Below are positions 8,782 through 28,973 of a stretch of DNA of 34,194 bases, piece by piece (position 1 is the stretch's first letter; every line of letters begins with the position of its first letter). The notes beneath the pieces are model-generated. The model saw only the letters and a list, made by a program, of their open reading frames with translations, was not told where the DNA came from and searched no databases. Origin of the DNA: a virus (Duplodnaviria > Heunggongvirae > Uroviricota > Caudoviricetes); IMG/VR virus record IMGVR_UViG_2541047826_000010; one strand, given 5' to 3'. The position numbers and the translations under genes are program-made.

Positions 8782-9090
8782 TTACAAACGACTACCTGAA
8801 ATAACTCGTTGGTTGATTTCGTTAATACGATCCTGTGCACGCGCCATCTCGTGACTGTGAGCCATGGCGATCTGTAGTAACTGGATTCCCGGTGCGAAAC
8901 GTCCGTTCTCTAATTTCATGGCCAGTCCCTCTTCAATAAGGGTATTAAGTGCTCGATTGATATTCGCCGGGGACTCCCCCAGGGCTGATGCCAGTTCACC
9001 GTTAGAAACACCGTTCAGAGCATGACCGCGTAGAGCTTTGAGTACACGTAGGATGCGGGTCCCAGAACTGGAAATATTTACTTTACTCAT
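8782..9090 (-). CDS. stand-alone IclR-type winged-HTH protein
   Basis: Internal ATG at 9090 of ORF 8782..9153. The product begins MSKVNISSSGTRILRVLKALRGHALNGVSNGELASALGESPANINRALNTL, which is IclR N-terminal HTH-like. There is no effector domain (102 aa in total). Confidence 0.6.
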   Translation of the reverse strand: MSKVNISSSGTRILRVLKALRGHALNGVSNGELASALGESPANINRALNTLIEEGLAMKLENGRFAPGIQLLQIAMAHSHEMARAQDRINEINQRVISGSRL

Positions 9091-9105
9091 GTCACATTTC
9101 CATTT

Positions 9106-9139
9106 TTGCAATATGTGATAACCTGTTGCATATGTGGAA
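9106..9139. repeat. two direct copies of TTGCA(A)TATGTG (minus-strand CACATAT core), candidate secondary operator
   Basis: TTGCAATATGTG lies at 9106-9117 and TTGCATATGTG at 9126-9136. The 10-mer ATATGTGATA (9111-9120) recurs exactly at 9368-9377 in the promoter region. Confidence 0.4.
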
Positions 9140-9142
9140 AAT

Positions 9143-9331
9143 TTATGCCGCATTTGACGTGGGTTTTAATCCCAGTTTTACGGCAATTTCATGGGCTTTG
9201 CCGTAACGAGCTTTGGTCTGTCCATTGAGAACACGATAGACCTCATTGCGGCTGTAGCCGTGTTCTTCGGCCCAGCGGGTAAACGTGATACCACGCTGAC
9301 GGAAGAGATTTTTAACTTGTTCGGAAGTCAT
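9143..9331 (-). CDS. Ner/Cro-like small HTH regulator, first gene of the early operon
   Basis: 62 aa. HTH FTRWAEEHGYSRNEVYRVLNG. SD AAGGAG. Divergent from the repressor gene. Confidence 0.65.
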   Translation of the reverse strand: MTSEQVKNLFRQRGITFTRWAEEHGYSRNEVYRVLNGQTKARYGKAHEIAVKLGLKPTSNAA

Positions 9332-9367
9332 TGTTGTCTCCTTTGTTGATGCAATGATGTTTGTTTT

Positions 9368-9377
9368 ATATGTGATA
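9368..9377. repeat. third copy of ATATGTGATA, overlapping the predicted early-transcript start
   Basis: Exact 10-mer repeat of 9111-9120, just downstream of the predicted -10 element of the early promoter. Confidence 0.4.
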
Positions 9378-9378
9378 G

Positions 9379-9407
9379 ATTATGAGAACTATTGTTCTCA
9401 TTGTCAA
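9379..9407 (-). promoter_or_regulatory. early promoter (Pe analogue): TTGACA-17 nt-CATAAT on the minus strand
   Basis: The minus strand reads TTGACA (plus-strand coordinates 9402-9407), a 17-nt spacer, then CATAAT (9379-9384). It lies about 45 nt upstream of the Ner-like ATG at 9331. Confidence 0.6.
9382..9401. promoter_or_regulatory. perfect palindromic operator candidate ATGAGAAC-TATT-GTTCTCAT
   Basis: 8-bp arms with a 4-bp spacer, read directly from the sequence. It fills the spacer and part of the -10 of the predicted early promoter. Confidence 0.55.
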
Positions 9408-9417
9408 TGAGGTTTAT

Positions 9418-9843
9418 GTGAATTTTGATTCTCTTTGCGCGTCGCGGTTCAAAGCTGAGCGTTCGCGGTTATCACTCAAGCAGGCTGAAGTAGCAGCCCT
9501 TTGTGGCGTTTCAAGAGAAATGTGGGGGAAATATGAACGAGGGGTTGCTGTTCCCGGAGGTGAGTTACTTGCAGCCTTTGCAAGAATTGGGGCCAATGTA
9601 CAGTTCATTCTTACCGGGGAGTCATCAGGTATAACTTTATCACGTGATGAAATGGAGTTACTGCAGCACTACCGGCAGGCACCATTACAGGTCAAAGGTT
9701 CAGTTTTGTCGGCCTTGACTACTGGCTCCTCCAGAGAACGGGCGGAACAGGTTATTCATGGAGATGTTCTGGGGAATGTTATCAAAGGTAACGTAACCAT
9801 AGGAACAGGTGGAATAATGAACAAAAATACCAAGAGAAGATGA
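9418..9843 (+). CDS. XRE/Cro-C1-type prophage repressor (no S24 peptidase domain)
   Basis: HTH LSLKQAEVAALCGVSREMWGKYERG ... NVQFILTGE. I prefer the GTG at 9418, which follows GAGG by 5 nt. The ATG at 9382 lies inside the operator palindrome. The C-terminal tail carries HGDVLGNVIKGNVTIGTGG. Confidence 0.8.
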   Translation: MNFDSLCASRFKAERSRLSLKQAEVAALCGVSREMWGKYERGVAVPGGELLAAFARIGANVQFILTGESSGITLSRDEMELLQHYRQAPLQVKGSVLSALTTGSSRERAEQVIHGDVLGNVIKGNVTIGTGGIMNKNTKRR

Positions 9844-10826
9844 GTAAAGAGAAGCAAACAGTTAACGGGGATGTGGGTAACGTTGTCAGCGGTGATGTTA
9901 CCATTCATAACTATTCTGCTGACATACTTCCTTCGGCCCAGCAACCAATTTCGTTGCTGCAAAAACGCGATTTACACAGATTGATGGATGAATTGGTTGA
10001 TCTGGGGGAAAGTAAGCGCGAGCTATGGATGACGATCCACACGAAACTTAATACCAAAACAGTTAATGAAATGACTGCGGCTGATTATCATGGTGCGGTT
10101 GAGATCCTTCAGAGATATGCACAACAGATCCAGAATATGAAGGACTGTAATCTTCTGGTCAGCAAAATAATGGCGCTTACTGACCCTGGGTATCGTCTTG
10201 ACCGTGACAGATACTGTCTGAAGCATTTCGGTACAACCCATCTTAAAGGCCTAGACAAAGAGCAGTTGCAGGCTGTGTTTGGTTATTTTGATGATCTGCT
10301 GAATATTCGTGATGAGAGTAAAACTCTATCACCTCCATCGGAAAGCGGTGCAAAATCAGTCGCAACTGTACCAACCAGAAGCCGGAAGCCTCATGTAGTA
10401 GTGTTGGGGGGAGTGTTAGTTCTTGTAGCAATATTTTTCGTGGGAATGATTGTGTTCGCTGGTAAATGGGGAAATGCCAAAGCAGTAGCTTCTACTGAAA
10501 CCAGCGTTTTTAACATTAAAACCAACGATAAAATAATAGAAGATTCCATCCCCGCACTGCGCAGCATGTTTCCAGGGTTAAATAAGTACTCAGATGATTT
10601 CCATTCGGTTTCAAGCTACAAGCAAAAAACGGGCTGGCATACCCTTAAATTTACTGTATCAGCAAAGGCATCCGTCCCCGAAAATTATAGTGTTAAGGGC
10701 AAGGTTTGTTACATTAACATAAGCCCTGATGGTAGTTATGCTCGGGTTTTGACTGCTCCATGTCGTTCACTGCTACTTGATCAGCAAAGCACTCCTGACA
10801 GTAAATACCGTTTTATTCTTAAATAG
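9840..10826 (+). CDS. bitopic membrane protein of unknown function, translationally coupled to the repressor
   Basis: 328 aa. ATGA overlap with the repressor stop (9840-9843). The N-terminus carries NGDVGNVVSGDVTIHN. A single TM helix spans about aa 185-208 (HVVVLGGVLVLVAIFFVGMIVFAG) and is preceded by RSRKPH. The C-terminal domain of about 120 aa is predicted periplasmic. GC is low. Confidence 0.7.
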   Translation: MSKEKQTVNGDVGNVVSGDVTIHNYSADILPSAQQPISLLQKRDLHRLMDELVDLGESKRELWMTIHTKLNTKTVNEMTAADYHGAVEILQRYAQQIQNMKDCNLLVSKIMALTDPGYRLDRDRYCLKHFGTTHLKGLDKEQLQAVFGYFDDLLNIRDESKTLSPPSESGAKSVATVPTRSRKPHVVVLGGVLVLVAIFFVGMIVFAGKWGNAKAVASTETSVFNIKTNDKIIEDSIPALRSMFPGLNKYSDDFHSVSSYKQKTGWHTLKFTVSAKASVPENYSVKGKVCYINISPDGSYARVLTAPCRSLLLDQQSTPDSKYRFILK

Positions 10827-10916
10827 AAAATAACAGCTGAATTACCATGGGATCAGAAAAAAGACAAAGGCGGCATCATGCTGCGTTCTGAAATTTTAAT
10901 GTAAAAGGTGATGAAC

Positions 10917-11498
10917 ATGGCAGGGATTCAGGTTATCGCAGGAAGTTTTCCTAAAGGGTGGGCAAGCATGGGGTTCGGTACCATCGTGTTTGCCAAAAAA
11001 CCAAAACAAGGCTTTCCTGAAAATATTGTATTAAATCTGAAAGAAGAGCTTTTATCGATTGAACTTGCGGATAGTGAAGAGGAAAGCCGTATAGGTAAGG
11101 CGGCAGGCGCAGGTTTGCTTGGTGGATTAATCTTTGGTGGTGCAGGGTTGGTCATTGGAGGTTTGCTTGGTGCGGCGGACAAGACGAAAAAAACTATCAC
11201 TTTTAAGGCAATGTTTACGGGAAATAGGTTACTTCTGGCTAAAACAGATTCAAAAACTTTTGTAAAACTTCAGTCAATTGCTGCTGATAATGCCCATAAC
11301 GCATCTGTAATCAACATGAAGCAAACTAACAGGGGCGATGTTTCTTCTCGTAAACAACTAACAGAAAATCCACAGCAGCAAGACTTACCTGCGCCCGCTA
11401 CAACAGTAAAAATGACTGCCAAAGATAAGTTAGAATCGGCTCTTGGGCTGGGAATCATCGTTATAGCTGTTTGGGCAATAATACACTTCTTTTTTTAG
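10917..11498 (+). CDS. glycine-zipper membrane protein of unknown function
   Basis: The ATG at 10917 lies 6 nt after AAGGTG; alternative starts are 10908 and 10911. Glycine-zipper segment AAGAGLLGGLIFGGAGLVIGGLLGAA spans aa 61-87. A C-terminal TM anchor reads LGLGIIVIAVWAIIHFFF. Confidence 0.7.
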   Translation: MAGIQVIAGSFPKGWASMGFGTIVFAKKPKQGFPENIVLNLKEELLSIELADSEEESRIGKAAGAGLLGGLIFGGAGLVIGGLLGAADKTKKTITFKAMFTGNRLLLAKTDSKTFVKLQSIAADNAHNASVINMKQTNRGDVSSRKQLTENPQQQDLPAPATTVKMTAKDKLESALGLGIIVIAVWAIIHFFF

Positions 11499-11500
11499 TG

Positions 11501-11524
11501 CAGCCCTTCAGGGCTGTTTCTGTT
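11501..11524 (+). terminator. intrinsic terminator closing the repressor operon
   Basis: CAGCCC-TTCA-GGGCTG stem-loop followed by TTTCTGTT, starting 3 nt after the stop codon. Confidence 0.7.
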
Positions 11525-11535
11525 CAGGAGGTATC

Positions 11536-12012
11536 TTAAGGATTATCCGGGGCGTTTTCCTGTTTGCCGTACTTCGGAGACGAACAACATTCTGTTGGCT
11601 GACCGGTGAGTTTACGTAACTCCTTCATGAGCAGCTCCTGATCGTAAACTGTCATCAGTGCCGCAATGGTGGCATGCAGTGCATCGGGCAGTATCCAGGG
11701 TTGCCGGCCCGTGGGGCATATAACATCCAGCAGCTCATTCGTCCGACAGATACGCTCCTCGCCGTATGACAACAGGCCCTGTCCCGTGTATTCCTCCAGC
11801 CTGATCACTGTGCCACCCCGTGGCTTCTGCCAGGTCGTCAGATCTTCGCCATTCATACGGCGCTCATTCTCCACGTCAGCAGCATCGACAATGACGCTGT
11901 TTCCGAGTTCCTGTTTCACCATCTCTTCTATCCGCGCCAGTACGTAACTTTTACCGCTGCCCACAGGACCGGACACAGTGACAGTGATGACCGGATTCAG
12001 TGTGTGCGTCAT
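11536..12012 (-). CDS. small P-loop NTPase (hypothetical), solitary minus-strand gene
   Basis: 158 aa. Walker A GPVGSGKS at aa 15-22. Possible Walker B VIVDAAD. SD GAGGAG. Convergent with the cassette and divergent from the late operon. Confidence 0.65.
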   Translation of the reverse strand: MTHTLNPVITVTVSGPVGSGKSYVLARIEEMVKQELGNSVIVDAADVENERRMNGEDLTTWQKPRGGTVIRLEEYTGQGLLSYGEERICRTNELLDVICPTGRQPWILPDALHATIAALMTVYDQELLMKELRKLTGQPTECCSSPKYGKQENAPDNP

Positions 12013-12073
12013 ATCGTATTCTCCTCTGTGAATAATTCATCGTTTATCCTGCACATCCCGTATCCCCGGCTCT

Positions 12074-12092
12074 CTTAACGCGCTTTAAAATC
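12074..12092 (+). promoter_or_regulatory. late-promoter motif copy 1 (CTTAA-N5-TTTAAAATC), upstream of the lysis genes
   Basis: One of four copies of YTTAA-N5-WTTAAWATC. The embedded -10-like hexamer TAAAAT lies at 12086-12091. There is no -35 match. It ends 50 nt before the holin ATG. Confidence 0.45.
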
Positions 12093-12142
12093 CTTCGCAC
12101 CCTGTATTTGTGATGCTGTCTCCACCAGATAAGGAGACACAC

Positions 12143-12493
12143 ATGAAAAACCTGAAAAAATTCATTCCCCCTGTTAAAAAACCTCGCCTCAGCGGCTGGC
12201 TGCTGACCTCAGTGCTGTTGCTGGGCACCATCGCTCTGGTCTCACCACAGCAGCTGCCTGTTGTGATCTACAAGCTGGCACTCATCACGCTGGCAGCAGT
12301 GCTGGGTTACTGGCTTGACCGTTCGCTCTTCCCCAAAGCCCGTCCCGGTCAGTACCTGAAACATGACGACAGGCTGATGGCTGAAGGGCGTTTCCCGGTA
12401 CAGACCGGCCTTCACCTGGTGTTTTCTGCTGCGTTAATCCGCCGTGCACTGATTGTTGCAGCGGTCTGCCTGGCTGTTGCGATGGGGCTTTAA
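12143..12493 (+). CDS. holin (2-3 TM class, putative)
   Basis: I chose the ATG at 12143 because it follows AAGGAG. The 116-aa product has three hydrophobic segments. It lies immediately upstream of the endolysin. Confidence 0.6.
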   Translation: MKNLKKFIPPVKKPRLSGWLLTSVLLLGTIALVSPQQLPVVIYKLALITLAAVLGYWLDRSLFPKARPGQYLKHDDRLMAEGRFPVQTGLHLVFSAALIRRALIVAAVCLAVAMGL

Positions 12494-12495
12494 TC

Positions 12496-13236
12496 ATGAA
12501 CTGGCCGCAGATCACCTGGATTGTATGCATGTCCCTGAAACTGGCTTTCGAAGCCTTTCGGGTCTTCATCAGAACCGAACGCCTGTCAGTCCGCGCCGGG
12601 ACCTTTCTGGTTCATATGGCATGGGTATTCTTTGTCGCAATGTTGCTCTGGTGTGGCGGCTTTTTTAGCCAGGCATGCGCAGCACAACCTCCGCAGGCTG
12701 CGCTGCAGTATCGCGATGATGTGATCCGTAATGCCCGGCTTGAATGGGGACTGTCTGCGCCGGTGGCCGATTTCGCCGCGCAACTGCATCAGGAAAGCGG
12801 CTGGCGACCTGATGCGATCTCGCCGGCTGGCGCTCAGGGACTGGCGCAGTTCATGCCTGCCACTGCCGACTGGATAAGCCAGTTGATACCGATGCTGAGC
12901 AGTCGTGAGCCGTTTAATCCGGCATGGGCTATCCGGGCGCTGGTCAGCTATGACCGCTGGCTGTGGCAGCGTGTCAGCGCCGCCAGTGACTGCGAGCGTA
13001 TGGCCATGACACTGTCGGGCTATAACGGTGGTCTGGGCTGGGTACAACGGGACAGGCGGCTTGCATCACAGAAAGGTCTGGACAGCACCCGCTGGTTCGG
13101 ACATGTCGCCACGGTGAATGCCGGACGCAATGCGGCCAGCTGGCGGGAGAACCGCCATTATCCGCAGCGCATCCTGCGCGAACTGGCACCGCGATATCTC
13201 ACATGGGGAGGCAGCAGTTGTGTGGCATCTGGTTAA
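12496..13236 (+). CDS. lytic transglycosylase (SLT family) endolysin with N-terminal hydrophobic signal/anchor
   Basis: Family-1 LT motifs are HQESGW (catalytic E-S), GAQGLAQFMP and SGYNGG. The N-terminal hydrophobic stretch MAWVFFVAMLLWCGGFFSQACA is present. The start codon is uncertain (12496 or the internal ATG at 12616). Confidence 0.85.
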   Translation: MNWPQITWIVCMSLKLAFEAFRVFIRTERLSVRAGTFLVHMAWVFFVAMLLWCGGFFSQACAAQPPQAALQYRDDVIRNARLEWGLSAPVADFAAQLHQESGWRPDAISPAGAQGLAQFMPATADWISQLIPMLSSREPFNPAWAIRALVSYDRWLWQRVSAASDCERMAMTLSGYNGGLGWVQRDRRLASQKGLDSTRWFGHVATVNAGRNAASWRENRHYPQRILRELAPRYLTWGGSSCVASG

Positions 13237-19540: not shown

Positions 19541-19559
19541 TCTAAAGCAGATTAAAATC
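19541..19559 (+). promoter_or_regulatory. late-promoter motif copy 2 (TCTAA-N5-ATTAAAATC), upstream of the head protease gene
   Basis: Same spacing as the other copies. -10-like TAAAAT lies at 19553-19558. It ends 55 nt before the ATG at 19615. Confidence 0.4.
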
Positions 19560-19614
19560 GCCGGGCCTGCATTTCTCACAAACTGTCTCCGACAACATAA
19601 CGCGGGACAGCAAA

Positions 19615-20730
19615 ATGTCAGCCATTCACATTTTTAAAGCCGGTACTCATACCGATATGCACGGCAAAAAACTGCCGTTCACGCCAGACGATCTTGCCGC
19701 CTGCGTGAAAGCCTATGACCCGTCCGTCCATGAAGCACCACTCGTGATTGGTCATCCCAGAACGGAAGACCCGGCGTGGGGCTGGGTGAAAGCCCTGTCG
19801 CTCAGCGGCGTCGATCTGATGGCAGAGCCTGCCCAGCTGGACCCGCAGTTTGCTGAGATGGTCACCGACGGACGATTCAAAAAAGTGTCCGCCTCTTTCT
19901 ACCTCCCGGATTCACCGTCCAATCCGAAGCCCGGCGTGCTCTACCTTCGCCATGTGGGCTTTCTCGGGGCACAGCCACCTTCCGTCAAGGGGCTGAAACA
20001 GGTGTCCTTCAGTGAGCAGGAAGAAGGTGTGGTGGAGTTCGCCGACTGGCAGGCCATCACGAATGCCTCCCTGTGGGGAAAGCTGCGCGATTTTCTGATC
20101 GCCCGCTTCAGTCTGGACGAGGCAGAAAAAGTCCTGCCGGAATGGCAGCTCAACAGTCTGCGCGAAGAGGCGTACCGCGACACACTGTCGCAGGATGCAG
20201 CAGGTGCACAATTCAGTGAGACAGGCCCGGGGCCGTCTTCCGCAAGTAACGAGGAATCATCGATGACAAAAGAAGAGATTGAAGCCCTTCAGGAGGAGAA
20301 CCGCCGCCTGAAGCAGCAGGCTGCTGATCGCGATGCGCGTGATGCACAGGTCAGACAGGAGCAACTGCATAAGGACAATGTGGCCTTTGCAGAAAAACTG
20401 GTCGCAGAGGGCCGTCTGGCTCCCCGCGCCTCCTCCGTGGTGGTTGCCCTGCTGGATGCCGTCGCCGGTGGCGACAAGCCGGTGGAGTTTGCTGAGGGGG
20501 AAAGCCGCACACCGCTGGCCACCGCCTTTCGTTCATTGCTCTCCGACGGGGAGCCGGTGATGAATTTCGCCGAACAGGCCACAAAAGAGCGTGTCGGCGA
20601 CACGGTGAAGGTGGATGTGGCAGAGTTTGCGGAAGCCGATCCTGAGCGTCTGGCCCTGCATCAGAAAGCAGTGGCCCTGTCCAAAAAAGAAGGCATCAGC
20701 TATGAGGCTGCTGTCGCACGCTGCCTGTAA
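19615..20730 (+). CDS. head protease / scaffold protein (Mu gene I-like)
   Basis: 371 aa. N-terminus IFKAGTHTDMHGKKLPFTPDDLAACVKAYDP...PLVIGHP. The C-terminal third is a charged coiled coil. Lies immediately upstream of the capsid gene. Confidence 0.75.
   Translation: MSAIHIFKAGTHTDMHGKKLPFTPDDLAACVKAYDPSVHEAPLVIGHPRTEDPAWGWVKALSLSGVDLMAEPAQLDPQFAEMVTDGRFKKVSASFYLPDSPSNPKPGVLYLRHVGFLGAQPPSVKGLKQVSFSEQEEGVVEFADWQAITNASLWGKLRDFLIARFSLDEAEKVLPEWQLNSLREEAYRDTLSQDAAGAQFSETGPGPSSASNEESSMTKEEIEALQEENRRLKQQAADRDARDAQVRQEQLHKDNVAFAEKLVAEGRLAPRASSVVVALLDAVAGGDKPVEFAEGESRTPLATAFRSLLSDGEPVMNFAEQATKERVGDTVKVDVAEFAEADPERLALHQKAVALSKKEGISYEAAVARCL
20263..20730 (+). CDS. possible nested in-frame scaffold product (Mu Z-like)
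   Basis: In-frame ATG at 20263 (codon 217), preceded by GAGGA 8 nt upstream. It begins the coiled-coil part, MTKEEIEALQEENRRLKQQ. Confidence 0.35.
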   Translation: MTKEEIEALQEENRRLKQQAADRDARDAQVRQEQLHKDNVAFAEKLVAEGRLAPRASSVVVALLDAVAGGDKPVEFAEGESRTPLATAFRSLLSDGEPVMNFAEQATKERVGDTVKVDVAEFAEADPERLALHQKAVALSKKEGISYEAAVARCL

Positions 20731-26021: not shown

Positions 26022-28973
26022 ATGTCGGGACAGTTTTCAGTCGGCGTTGTTATCGGCGGGATGATTGGTAGCACATTCCGTTCTGCAATGAGCGGTACCC
26101 GCCGTGCGCTTGATTCCCTGAGCGATACCTCACGCCGCCTGCAGGAACGTCAGAACGCTTTAACCCGTGCAACAGAACGTTATGGTCAACTGGGTTCTTC
26201 CCGGATGCAGCATCTCAACAGCGAGCTGCTGCGGGTAAGCCGCACCATGGAGCAAATTGAGCGCCAGCAGCGCCGTCTGTCAGCGGCATCCGCTACCAGT
26301 GATGCGCTGAAAGCTAACCGCATGGCGCTGTATGGTCAGGGGATTGAAGCGTATGGCATGGCACAGACTGTTTATCATACGGTTTCCCCTGCCGTTCAGC
26401 AGTCCATGTCTTTTCAGGACAAAATGATTGATATGTCGATCACCGCAAAATATGACAATAAAACGCGGGATGCACTTGCCGGACAGATAAAAGGCTGGGC
26501 GCTTAAATACAATCAGTATCAGGATGAGCTGCAGGAGGCGGTGGGTTCACTCATCAGCGACAATATTGATAATGTGTCAGATATCGGTTTTCTGATGCCG
26601 GATATTGCCCGCGCGGCAACGGCAACACGCACGTCTGCTCAGGACTGGGCAAAAGTGGCCGCAGTCTGGCAAAACTCCCTGAAAGGTGCGGCCAGAGATT
26701 TTGGTGCCGTTCAGAATATTATGGCTTATGCCGGTGACCAGGGGTCATTTGAAATCCCGGATCAGGTCAAGTGGATGCAGTCCCTGGCCCCAATGATGGC
26801 GGGTATTGCCAGTGGAAAAGAGGCTGTTGCTGAAATCGGGGCCAGTCTCCAGATAGCAAAAATCGGTGCAGGTTCCACCGACGAAGCAGCCAATAATTTT
26901 AAAAACTTTCTTACCAAAATTTTTGCCCGCGATACTCAGAAACAGTTTGCTGATCTGGGTATTGATTTGCAGGGATCTATTGCGAGTTATAAAGCTGCGG
27001 GGATCTCTCCGATTGAAGGGATGTTGAGTGTTATAGAACGTTACCTCAATGCCAAAAGCCCCGAAGCGCTGGCCGGCTTCAAATCAGCCATGAAAATAAA
27101 GAATGATACGGCAAGAGATGAGGCACTTCAGGCTCTGGCGAAAAACTTTGGTCTGGGCGATATGTTCGCGGATATGCAGGTCATGGCATTTATCCGCCCG
27201 ATGCTGGCCAACATGGACAGATATCGAGAGATCCGTGCCGGTGCTCTCAGGGCTGCGGATAACGATTTGCTTGCCAGTGCTTATGATCAGCGGCTGAAAT
27301 CTCCCCTTGAAGCCACTAAAGCACTTATGGTCAGCAGTCGTGATCTGGCAATTACGCTGGGCGATCAATTAGCTCCATCTTTTATTTCTCTGACTCAGGA
27401 ACTGCTTCCACTCATTCAGGGGGCAAAACACTGGGTAGCGACTCACCCGCAATTTGTCAGTGGGGCTTTTAAGCTCATCAGTGCGCTCCTTGCGATTAAG
27501 ATAGCGACTGTTGGTCTCAAACTGGGGCTGAATCTCCTTATTTCCCCCTTTGTAAGTGTCTGGAAAAATGCTGTTTTACTTCGGGCCAACTGGCTTCGTC
27601 TGTCGCTCGCACTGGGGCAAGGCGGTAAGCTCCGCTGGCTGGTGACCGGATTTAGCGCCGTCGCCAAAGGAGCCAGAACACTGAGTGGCGTGCTCTCCGG
27701 GGGGCTGGTTCGCGGAATTATGCTCGCCGGACGTGCTGTTCTCTGGATTGGACGTGCGCTGATGATGAATCCCATCGGTCTCGTTATCACCGCTGTCGCG
27801 GCAGCAGCTTACCTTATCTACCGCAACTGGGGGGCAGTCAGTGGCTGGTTTAAACAGCGCTGGGCAGACATTCAGGAAGCCTTTAACGGCGGCATTGTGG
27901 GAATTGGTAAGTTGCTGATTAACTGGTCGCCGGCAGGCCTGCTCTATAAAGCCTTTGCGGCTGCGCTGAAATATTTCGGCGTTGCTCTGCCGGCAAAGTT
28001 CACCGACTTCGGTGGCCATCTTATCGACGGTCTGATTAACGGTATCAAAAACAAATGGGGGTCGCTCAAATCCAGTGTAACCGGAATGGGTGACAGCATC
28101 AGTAGCTGGTTTAAACAGTGCTGGGCTGACATTCAGGAAGCCTTTAACGGCGGTATCGCGGGAACTGGTAAGCTGCTGATTAACTGGTCGCCGGCAGGTC
28201 TGCTCTATAAAGCCTTTGCAGCTGCGCTGAAATATCTTGGTGTTGATCTGCCGGCAAAGTTCACCGACTTCGGTGGCCATCTTGTCGACGGTCTGATTAA
28301 CGGTATCAAAAACAAATGGGAGTCGCTCAAATCCAGTGTAACCGGAATGGGTGACAGCATCAGTGGCTGGTTCAGCGAAAAGCTGGGCATTCATTCGCCG
28401 AGCCGCGTGTTTATGGGCTTTGGTGACAATATCGCGCAGGGGGCCGCCATTGGCCTGCAGCGGACCACTCCGCTTGCAGCTCTGGCCGGGCAGCGAATGG
28501 CCAGTGAACTGCTCCCCAAAATGCCCGTGAGCATTCAGGGGCCAGAAATACGGGATAACACTTCAGGTGTTCGCTTCAGTATGCCGTTGCCCGATATCAA
28601 TGGGTTTATGTCGTCTGCTAAAAATGCGATCGGAGCCGTAATCAATAGTTTGTCTTCCATGCCCGCTATTCCGCTCTCCACCCGGGCATCGATTTTACCA
28701 GGGCAACGTCTGGCAAATGAGATGACACCGGATGTTCCCCGTATCCCCTCGCCTGAAATCCTGGCTGCCGGATATTCAGGCCGTGGTGCAGCTGCAACCG
28801 GCGGTGGAACGTCTGGTGGTATCCAGGTCAGCTTTAATCCTCAGTTTTTCCTCAATGGCAGGGAAACCACAGCGCCTGCCGGACTGACTGGCGCCCTGAA
28901 TATGAGCCTGCATGAGCTGGAAAAAATGCTGGAGCGTCTGCTGGCTCAGAAACAACGTAAGGAGTACCGCTGA
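26022..28973 (+). CDS. tail tape measure protein
   Basis: 983 aa. Position after the chaperone pair. Long helical and hydrophobic central region. SD GGAGG. Confidence 0.9.
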   Translation: MSGQFSVGVVIGGMIGSTFRSAMSGTRRALDSLSDTSRRLQERQNALTRATERYGQLGSSRMQHLNSELLRVSRTMEQIERQQRRLSAASATSDALKANRMALYGQGIEAYGMAQTVYHTVSPAVQQSMSFQDKMIDMSITAKYDNKTRDALAGQIKGWALKYNQYQDELQEAVGSLISDNIDNVSDIGFLMPDIARAATATRTSAQDWAKVAAVWQNSLKGAARDFGAVQNIMAYAGDQGSFEIPDQVKWMQSLAPMMAGIASGKEAVAEIGASLQIAKIGAGSTDEAANNFKNFLTKIFARDTQKQFADLGIDLQGSIASYKAAGISPIEGMLSVIERYLNAKSPEALAGFKSAMKIKNDTARDEALQALAKNFGLGDMFADMQVMAFIRPMLANMDRYREIRAGALRAADNDLLASAYDQRLKSPLEATKALMVSSRDLAITLGDQLAPSFISLTQELLPLIQGAKHWVATHPQFVSGAFKLISALLAIKIATVGLKLGLNLLISPFVSVWKNAVLLRANWLRLSLALGQGGKLRWLVTGFSAVAKGARTLSGVLSGGLVRGIMLAGRAVLWIGRALMMNPIGLVITAVAAAAYLIYRNWGAVSGWFKQRWADIQEAFNGGIVGIGKLLINWSPAGLLYKAFAAALKYFGVALPAKFTDFGGHLIDGLINGIKNKWGSLKSSVTGMGDSISSWFKQCWADIQEAFNGGIAGTGKLLINWSPAGLLYKAFAAALKYLGVDLPAKFTDFGGHLVDGLINGIKNKWESLKSSVTGMGDSISGWFSEKLGIHSPSRVFMGFGDNIAQGAAIGLQRTTPLAALAGQRMASELLPKMPVSIQGPEIRDNTSGVRFSMPLPDINGFMSSAKNAIGAVINSLSSMPAIPLSTRASILPGQRLANEMTPDVPRIPSPEILAAGYSGRGAAATGGGTSGGIQVSFNPQFFLNGRETTAPAGLTGALNMSLHELEKMLERLLAQKQRKEYR
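27846..28367 (+). repeat. in-frame tandem duplication, 2 x 261 bp (87 aa), inside the tape-measure gene
   Basis: Copy 1 is 27846-28106 and copy 2 is 28107-28367. My hand alignment gives about 16 mismatches in 261 nt and 8 of 87 aa differences. Both copies begin WFKQ(R/C)WADIQEAFNGG. Confidence 0.9.

Follow-up and report, generated by a model that had tools for sequence, protein, structure and literature searches.

Previous studies on Ea22, the product of a gene located between exo and xis, reported that the protein is expressed early, is pro-lysogenic, and has a C-terminal portion that differs from phage to phage (PMC7093339), and that Ea22 of phage lambda is a tetramer and its isolated C-terminal domain a dimer (PMC10834534). 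A C-terminal domain of the P-loop (phosphate-loop) type is mentioned in neither of these two papers. We describe herein a gene whose product appears to contain such a domain in another setting. It lies at 11536..12012 on the minus strand of a 34,194-nucleotide stretch of viral DNA (IMG/VR record IMGVR_UViG_2541047826_000010; hereafter "the window"), which is an Escherichia coli BcepMu-like (Bcepmuvirus) transposable prophage, and it codes for a protein of 158 amino acids (aa). We show that the gene is real, under purifying selection, and part of the phage backbone, and that its product is, as judged from alignments, a mosaic of two modules: an N-terminal mini P-loop (Module A), which represents a phage-restricted family and recurs as the C-terminal domain of certain Ea22-like proteins, and a predicted helical module (Module D) that is shuffled independently of it.

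The gene starts with ATG, and a Shine-Dalgarno-like GAGGAG (12021..12026, minus strand) is found 8 nt 5' of this codon, as had been noted in a sequence-only reading of the window. RefSeq places the identical coding sequence (WP_000149906.1, named "ABC transporter ATPase") in identical prophages, so that the open reading frame (ORF) proposed in that reading stands. It had also been described as the sole minus-strand gene to the right of the genetic switch, and this holds for the genes annotated in RefSeq from the repressor gene (9382) to the end of the window. The G+C content had been put at about 51% and regarded as intermediate; the measured value is 54.5% (61% at third codon positions), equal to that of the whole window (54.5%) and close to that of the holin gene (56%), that is, backbone-like. 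When compared with four alleles, both halves of the gene gave ratios of nonsynonymous to synonymous substitution (dN/dS) of 0.15-0.42, which argues for purifying selection. The synonymous divergence (dS) between the window and strain EC958 is 0.21 for aa 1-78 and 0.02 for aa 79-138, and this inequality points to recombination within the gene. No literature on the 158-aa protein was found.

Module A spans aa 1-78 (11779..12012, minus strand) and is the sole part of the protein that is conserved outside enterobacterial prophages. Two alignments of relatives (A5 and A6) were made, and the counts given here refer to the 71 sequences of A6. The Walker A sequence GPVGSGKS, previously pointed out at aa 15-22 (11947..11970, minus strand), was confirmed and is conserved among these relatives: G20, K21, and S/T22 are present in all 71, and G15 in 70. 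Other well-kept positions are I28 and G37 (70/71 each), E29 and E50 (67/71 each), and K/R51 (64/71). The sequence VIVDAAD, which had been suggested as a possible Walker B, is indeed present at aa 40-46, but it is not a conserved motif, since position 43 holds Asp in only 15 of the 71 sequences, and position 46 an acidic residue in 41. A better candidate for the Walker-B-like acid is found further downstream, in the hydrophobic strand VIRLEE (aa 69-74; 11791..11808, minus strand), which ends in a Glu (E74) present in 71 of 71 relatives and preceded by aliphatic residues at positions 70 and 72. By analogy with the hhhhD/E Walker B motifs (h denotes a hydrophobic residue), this element is likely to be Walker-B-like. 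The pattern of the module can thus be written as a strand, GxxGxGK[ST], a helix, a strand, [DE]LxxE[KR], and then hhhhE.

A profile search against 1.84 billion representative proteins retrieved 66 proteins at E <= 1e-3, most of which match from position 1 to about 75. These are of two kinds, stand-alone proteins (70-90 aa) and longer ones (140-364 aa) whose C-termini are unrelated; the overall range is about 50-364 aa. A second search, started from an alignment of 33 domains, added 97 proteins, mostly of 70-90 aa, and nearly all of these carry no precomputed Pfam domain. Module A therefore appears, from these profile matches, to be a minimal P-loop family that is restricted to phages and has no description in the copies of Pfam, NCBIfam, and PADLOC that were searched. 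It occurs in three forms: a stand-alone protein of 63-90 aa in temperate and jumbo phages, the C-terminal domain of Ea22-like proteins, and the N-terminal module of mosaic proteins in the prophage slot studied here. Contrary to what had been supposed, the gene is consequently no orphan; close homologues are present in 570 complete E. coli genomes, and many phages carry distant ones.

All six contexts of the stand-alone form that were examined are phages or prophages. In a Yersinia prophage, the module sits between the lysis cassette and the HNH/terminase genes; in an Acinetobacter prophage and one prophage-like contig, it lies just upstream of HNH/terminase. On other phage contigs (L007 and L018) it is embedded in arrays of early-type genes of about 70 aa, and one copy is on a 73-kb contig that also codes for a TubZ C-terminal domain. 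Stand-alone copies are likewise present in Burkholderia phage BcepC6B (gp37) and in the Ralstonia/Burkholderia jumbo phages RSL2, RSF1, and FLC. A scan of IMG/VR yielded 211 viral contigs with relatives of one subgroup; clustering of the neighbors around 80 viral loci was noisy and disclosed no conserved partner gene.

The second form links the family to the exo-xis region. On one IMG/VR contig (L040, 2650-3234), the module is the C-terminal domain of an Ead/Ea22-like protein encoded in the exo-xis region of a lambdoid prophage. P-loop fusions annotated as Ea22 also occur in phages phiV10 (NC_007804.2, 36349-37038), phiv142-3, D6, and JL22, in O157 typing phages 9 and 10, in APC_JM3.2, and in others; in these proteins, the variable C-terminal domain is what appears homologous to Module A. 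In a BLASTP comparison of the window protein with the phiV10-type Ea22 (L040), aa 9-60 align with the P-loop module alone (E = 2e-4). Ea22 of lambda itself was considered as a homologue of Module A and rejected (BLASTP E = 0.77), because its C-terminal domain is a different one without a P-loop; only the N-terminal and coiled-coil part is common to lambda Ea22 and the P-loop type. The window protein and the Ea22-like proteins are alike in design: each would be an accessory, non-essential protein built of shuffled modules, with a variable domain specific to each phage. Unlike Ea22, the window protein contains no Ea22 N-terminal or coiled-coil region and no K/R-G-E end, and its P-loop is N-terminal; moreover, its gene adjoins Mu-like lysis genes, whereas that of Ea22 is located between exo and xis.

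Curated domain libraries contributed little to the identity of the protein. Searches of Pfam, NCBIfam, and PADLOC with the 158-aa protein gave only sub-threshold hits that fall mainly on the Walker A stretch, those in Pfam and NCBIfam being spread over 19 families, in keeping with the earlier remark that no further domain is recognizable. Pfam KAP_NTPase scored 14.6 bits (cut-off 20) over aa 4-43 only, and Zeta_toxin 12.6 bits (cut-off 22.3; E = 0.09), with no co-oriented small gene in the neighborhood; the best PADLOC model, SngB, reached E = 0.007, mainly through the P-loop stretch. For ATP-binding cassette (ABC) proteins, Pfam ABC_tran was absent at E <= 0.1, the NCBIfam models scored 14-15 bits against cut-offs of 266-875, and neither the LSGGQ signature nor a Q-loop or H-loop is found within the 158 aa. 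In ABC ATPases, Walker A is preceded by antiparallel strands totaling about 30 residues; here, only 14 residues lie ahead of the Walker A glycine. Thus, the RefSeq name "ABC transporter ATPase" is unsupported and misleading. The names given in RefSeq to the family as a whole are inconsistent (ABC transporter ATPase, KAP family NTPase, P-loop NTPase fold protein, and hypothetical protein). The one strong match is to PHROG 3787, a group of unknown function (E = 2.1e-107), with aa 1-157 aligned on profile positions 1-157 of 242; the stand-alone mini proteins match positions ~5-75 of the same profile. By these profile matches, then, the protein is a member of the unannotated PHROG 3787 only. The length of that profile equals that of the 242-aa allele of PhiKM and EC958, and the allele in the window is without the last ~85 residues.

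Structure prediction and a fold search had been proposed as a check, and they gave a weak model and no fold match. With 13 close sequences, AlphaFold2 (AF2) returned a predicted local distance difference test (pLDDT) score of 46.8; with 71 sequences, the mean rose to 64, and to 80-88 over aa 11-60, where a loop is followed by helices at 21-39 and 45-54. Searches with the predicted models matched no known fold, and the P-loop fold of Module A is here inferred from its motifs. Like P-loop nucleoside triphosphatases (NTPases) in general, the module has GxxxxGK[ST] after an N-terminal hydrophobic strand, then a helix, and later a hydrophobic strand ending in an invariant Glu, which resembles hhhhD/E. 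Unlike them, its conserved unit is about 75 aa, too small for the usual five-strand core. The resemblance to ABC transporters is limited to aa 12-47 of the window protein, which are similar to the Walker-A/beta-subdomain stretch (E about 2e-5 with the family profile). In the PDB, the family profile matched the Walker-A segments of ABC nucleotide-binding domains and, beyond these, only a reconstructed P-loop prototype (6c2u, "phosphate-loop protein") and a designed ATPase (9jix, "De Novo Designed ATPase PL2x4_2"). The E values for the latter two were 7e-5 to 2e-4, and the alignment with 9jix covered profile positions 7-75. These two proteins share with Module A a very short strand/P-loop/helix/strand arrangement, but they are laboratory constructs built from consensus sequences, while Module A is a natural phage family under selection. 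The similarity for that reason reflects consensus-likeness rather than descent.

The C-terminal half of the protein contains Module D at aa ~85-137 (11602..11760, minus strand; ...PWILPDALHATIAALMTVYDQELLMKELRKL), which is predicted to be helical and is shared with relatives; AF2 placed helices at 85-98, 110-122, and 125-136 with low confidence. This module is also C-terminal in P0034, P0036, P0057, and P0062, and it is found without any P-loop in P0067 and P0069. The 158-aa protein is thus, in terms of its sequence relationships, a two-module mosaic in which the helical part appears to be shuffled independently. This half had been said to contain Cys and Pro, and it does: Cys residues are at 89, 99, 142, and 143, and Pro residues at 100, 105, 109, 139, 146, 155, and 158, in addition to those at 7, 16, and 64; the protein ends in ...PDNP.

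The alleles at this locus measure 141, 158, 182, and 242/247 aa, and many database entries are truncated. Those of 141 aa (P0013 and P0015) have a C-terminus that is shorter and divergent; they, like the 182-aa alleles, may represent decayed or alternative forms. Because homology to the 242-aa gene of phage PhiKM breaks at codon ~155, it was considered that the 158-aa form might be a truncation caused by the adjoining cassette. This was rejected, since another 158-aa allele (P0008, on L010), 83% identical, has the same end (...CCGGATAATCCTTAA) and the same stop codon, is followed by a different downstream region with Dam as its neighbor, and is no longer homologous to the window immediately beyond that codon. 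Thus, 158 aa is the length of a proper allele, whose stop codon marks the start of the variable region. In clone KP12_2 of Klebsiella phage KP12 (OM835952.1; L020, 3614-3997), the position divergent from the holin gene is occupied by an unannotated minus-strand ORF of 127 aa, which carries a different mosaic module with no P-loop. Hence, the slot is a hotspot of mosaic genes in which a P-loop module is frequent but not obligatory. OM835952.1 is filed under Vequintavirinae; the DNA of clone KP12_2 is that of a BcepMu-like prophage.

Within its prophage group, the gene is nearly core. Of 5,426 complete E. coli genomes, 570 have it, 435 of these at an identity of 90-95% and 108 at >=99%; for comparison, 636 genomes show a match to some part of the surrounding 3.3 kb. 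Many complete E. coli chromosomes contain these 3.3 kb with 100% identity, and 98 genomes contain at least 80% of them. In every relative examined (the window, EC958, PhiKM, L010, L012/13, and Citrobacter), the gene is divergent from the holin gene at a distance of about 130 bp. The Citrobacter locus came from a scan of a genome collection with the pattern of the N-domain, which is that of a generic P-loop, and at least one such locus was among the matches listed. On the 3' side, the neighbors vary: a small ORF and a Dam methylase gene in EC958 (sequence type 131, ST131) and PhiKM, an opposite-strand ORF and Dam in L010 and L012/13, and other ORFs and Dam in Citrobacter braakii. In EC958 (L003, 3185-5465), which represents the commonest variant, the 242-aa allele is followed on the same strand by a 72-aa ORF and the Dam methylase gene, and an annotated 134-aa ORF on the other strand overlaps that junction. 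The gene thus heads a variable region that holds a Dam methylase gene, small ORFs, or, in the window, a repressor gene and two membrane-protein genes. The suggestion that it is a separate accessory gene agrees with its own ribosome-binding site and its location in the variable stretch that separates the immunity genes from the lysis/late operon. Its designation as a typical moron was half right: it is an accessory gene of a variable region, but one that is nearly core.

The cassette made up of the repressor and two membrane genes is low in G+C (42-46%) and represents imported DNA, and its boundary falls directly after the stop codon of the gene. The difference in G+C content, the constant position divergent from the holin gene, and the unequal numbers of genomes (570 versus 127) place the gene in the phage backbone. 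The two membrane genes (9840-11498) were found in 127 complete E. coli genomes, 97 of them with the full length, and about 30 of the 127 contain only the first membrane gene. The N-terminus of the 328-aa cassette protein resembles that of Flk (NCBIfam NF007987, E = 2.9e-12). At least 443 genomes contain the gene without the two membrane genes. The sequence-only reading had called for a check of whether homologues co-occur with these genes; they do so inconsistently, and Citrobacter, ST131, and PhiKM have other neighbors. The gene is therefore independent of the membrane cassette, which is a candidate for defense, and experiments on the cassette need not include 11536-12012.

Between the gene and the holin/late operon lies a divergent intergenic region of 130 bp (12013..12142). 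As had been stated, this upstream region is shared with a late-promoter-like motif, TTAAAATC-N23-CTGTCTCC, which points rightward from 12085-12123, upstream of the holin operon. The motif occurs exactly twice in the window with identical spacing, and the second copy (19552-19590) precedes the head-gene block at 19615. The core of the motif is kept in the Citrobacter and Klebsiella relatives, and the conserved parts of 12013-12142 are those of this motif; it is likely to be a Mor-dependent late promoter. On the other side of the gene, a GC-rich hairpin (11500..11517, plus strand) is located 18 nt past the stop codon, where the low-GC cassette gives way to the backbone. The gene had been described as converging on the cassette terminator. 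The hairpin does lie between the convergent genes, but it provides no terminator for the minus-strand gene: its T-rich tail exists for plus-strand transcripts only, and the minus strand continues with ACTAAAAAAAG, so that it terminates the cassette and not the gene.

Elsewhere in the window, the leftward early genes code for a Ner-like helix-turn-helix protein, an rve transposase, an ExeA/AAA_22 "B" protein, Gam, GemA, and Mor, the gene for the Mor-family activator being at 1065-1454. The rightward late genes begin with a Holin_2-3 holin and an SLT transglycosylase, followed by terminase, portal, head, and contractile-tail genes. The nearest phage record is Escherichia phage PhiKM, of the genus Bcepmuvirus. 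The left flank (1-1064) codes for a trehalose phosphatase; in E. coli AR_0015 (L019, 1-1064), a prophage that is otherwise identical has grxA/ybjM beside it. The same phage is thus found at differing chromosomal sites, as expected of a transposable phage. The tail tape-measure gene is a single ORF of 983 aa in the window (26022-28973), and that of AR_0015 (L019, 26022-29234) is annotated as two partial pseudogene pieces. No Rfam family was found at 9000-13000 of the window, and a repeat search brought out no repeats of any meaning.

Taken as a whole, these data suggest that the selected backbone gene codes for a mini-P-loop mosaic that binds nucleotide, is probably oligomeric, and serves as a non-essential accessory factor. 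We propose this tentatively, as a reading slightly more apt to fail than to hold. Module A would bind nucleotide phosphates through K21 and S22, and E74 and/or E50 may hold Mg2+ or serve in catalysis. It would probably act as a homo-oligomer, since 75 residues cannot build a complete P-loop sheet; in the Ea22-type proteins, the module would hang on the coiled coil that tetramerizes lambda Ea22. More speculatively, nucleotide binding or hydrolysis might be converted into an action on a host or phage target, with a role in host takeover, the lysis-lysogeny balance, or counter-defense, like the early accessory proteins of the exo-xis/Ea22 class. A bolder version of this proposal, that Module A is the smallest natural P-loop domain (~65-75 residues), completes its sheet and active site by oligomerizing, and acts as a portable nucleotide-sensing or nucleotide-sequestering cassette that tunes lysis-lysogeny or blunts nucleotide-based immunity, seems to us unlikely.

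Several observations count against the favored proposal. A few relatives (P0036 and P0058) have GKN in place of GKS/T, and the 182-aa alleles (P0028 and P0030) carry an internal deletion of aa 52-124 and so contain neither E74 nor Module D; some copies may therefore be non-catalytic or decaying. The AF2 model from 71 sequences is mediocre, with no beta-sheet assigned, although a monomer model without a sheet is compatible with a need to oligomerize and constitutes no proof of it. No consensus sigma-70 promoter for the leftward gene was found in 12013..12142. Finally, the Ea22 proteins that were tested (those of lambda and Phi24B) carry other C-terminal domains, so that their pro-lysogenic phenotype cannot be transferred to the P-loop type.

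Alternative explanations differ mainly in the partner or target they assign to the gene. That it is a third, NTP-dependent component that powers or regulates the two membrane proteins of the adjacent cassette was suggested by the sequence-only reading, and is prompted by their physical adjacency in the window and by the similar numbers of genomes with the >=99% allele (108) and with the full cassette (97). A single prophage lineage, identical (100%) across 3.3 kb, explains the latter agreement. Gene and cassette lie on opposite strands and converge, and their G+C contents differ by about 10 points with the boundary at the stop codon; moreover, at least 443 of the 570 gene-bearing genomes do without the membrane genes, the 158-aa allele also occurs with Dam and no cassette, and BcepMu, which has a similarly arranged gp17-gp19 block, has no counterpart of the gene. 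This explanation is extremely improbable. Only a little less so is the idea of a functionless remnant, in which a decaying fragment of a larger ATPase gene hitch-hikes beside the late promoter. The scatter of allele lengths (141, 158, 182, and 242/247 aa), the internal-deletion alleles, the truncated database entries, and the failure to find a terminator or consensus promoter of its own would fit such a fragment. Nevertheless, it is made very unlikely by the dN/dS values, the invariance of Walker A and E74 across very distant phages, and the intact stand-alone genes in many phages; with only 8-12 residues before Walker A, the module is not the N-terminus of an ABC ATPase.

Three other possibilities assign a definite activity to the protein, and all are unlikely to different degrees. 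A regulator of late transcription or lysis timing, acting through the shared divergent promoter region, would account for a gene that is always divergent from that for holin, about 130 bp away, with the late-promoter-like motif between them; the stand-alone Yersinia homologue directly after the lysis cassette and three other homologues just upstream of HNH/terminase, where the late operon starts, agree with this. Its prospects are poor nonetheless. The protein showed no DNA-binding motif, the phage already has an activator of the Mor family, the P-loop module is dispensed with in BcepMu and in the KP12 relative, and many homologues are in early regions. Slightly less remote, though still rather unlikely, is a stand-alone prophage toxin or an abortive-infection or defense protein, namely a small kinase or ATPase that the lysogen would express and that would kill the cell, or arrest it, upon superinfection. 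The slot is a variable hotspot of prophages, a frequent site of defense genes, there are P-loop-level hits to Zeta_toxin, KAP_NTPase, BrxC/D, SngB, HerA, and PtuA, and some relatives are named KAP family NTPases in RefSeq; all of these hits are sub-threshold and fall mainly on the Walker A stretch. The kinase- or ATPase-type toxin of the earlier reading thus found no support: no antitoxin or partner gene adjoins in the same orientation, a kinase with a substrate-binding lid would need more than 75 residues, and modules in virulent jumbo phages and lambdoid early operons fit phage-side functions better. Counter-defense, by an oligomeric nucleotide binder that sequesters an immune signal or by Walker A mimicry that poisons host P-loop or ABC-type defense ATPases, is also unlikely, but has somewhat more in its favor. 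The module is small, phage-restricted, and modular, with an invariant phosphate-binding motif; it occurs in arrays of ~70-aa early-type genes (L007 and L018) and in jumbo phages; its closest sequence matches in the PDB are the Walker-A/beta-subdomains of ABC nucleotide-binding domains; and most relatives are near a Dam methylase, itself an anti-restriction function. On the other hand, no conserved link to any defense-related neighbor was found, other roles would suit a copy resident in a prophage equally well, and the established sponges (Tad1/2 and Acb2) are not known to have a P-loop.

As a feature of the window, the gene is an ordinary one; it is the Module A family it reveals that is of moderate interest. 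Among complete E. coli genomes, those of ST131 included, about 10% carry a member; further members occur within the Ea22-like proteins of O157 phages and in Burkholderia/Ralstonia jumbo phages. If the members do bind nucleotide, then Module A would be the counterpart in nature of the minimal P-loop prototypes with which the origin of the fold is modeled, and would offer a handle on the poorly understood early accessory proteins of the exo-xis/Ea22 class.

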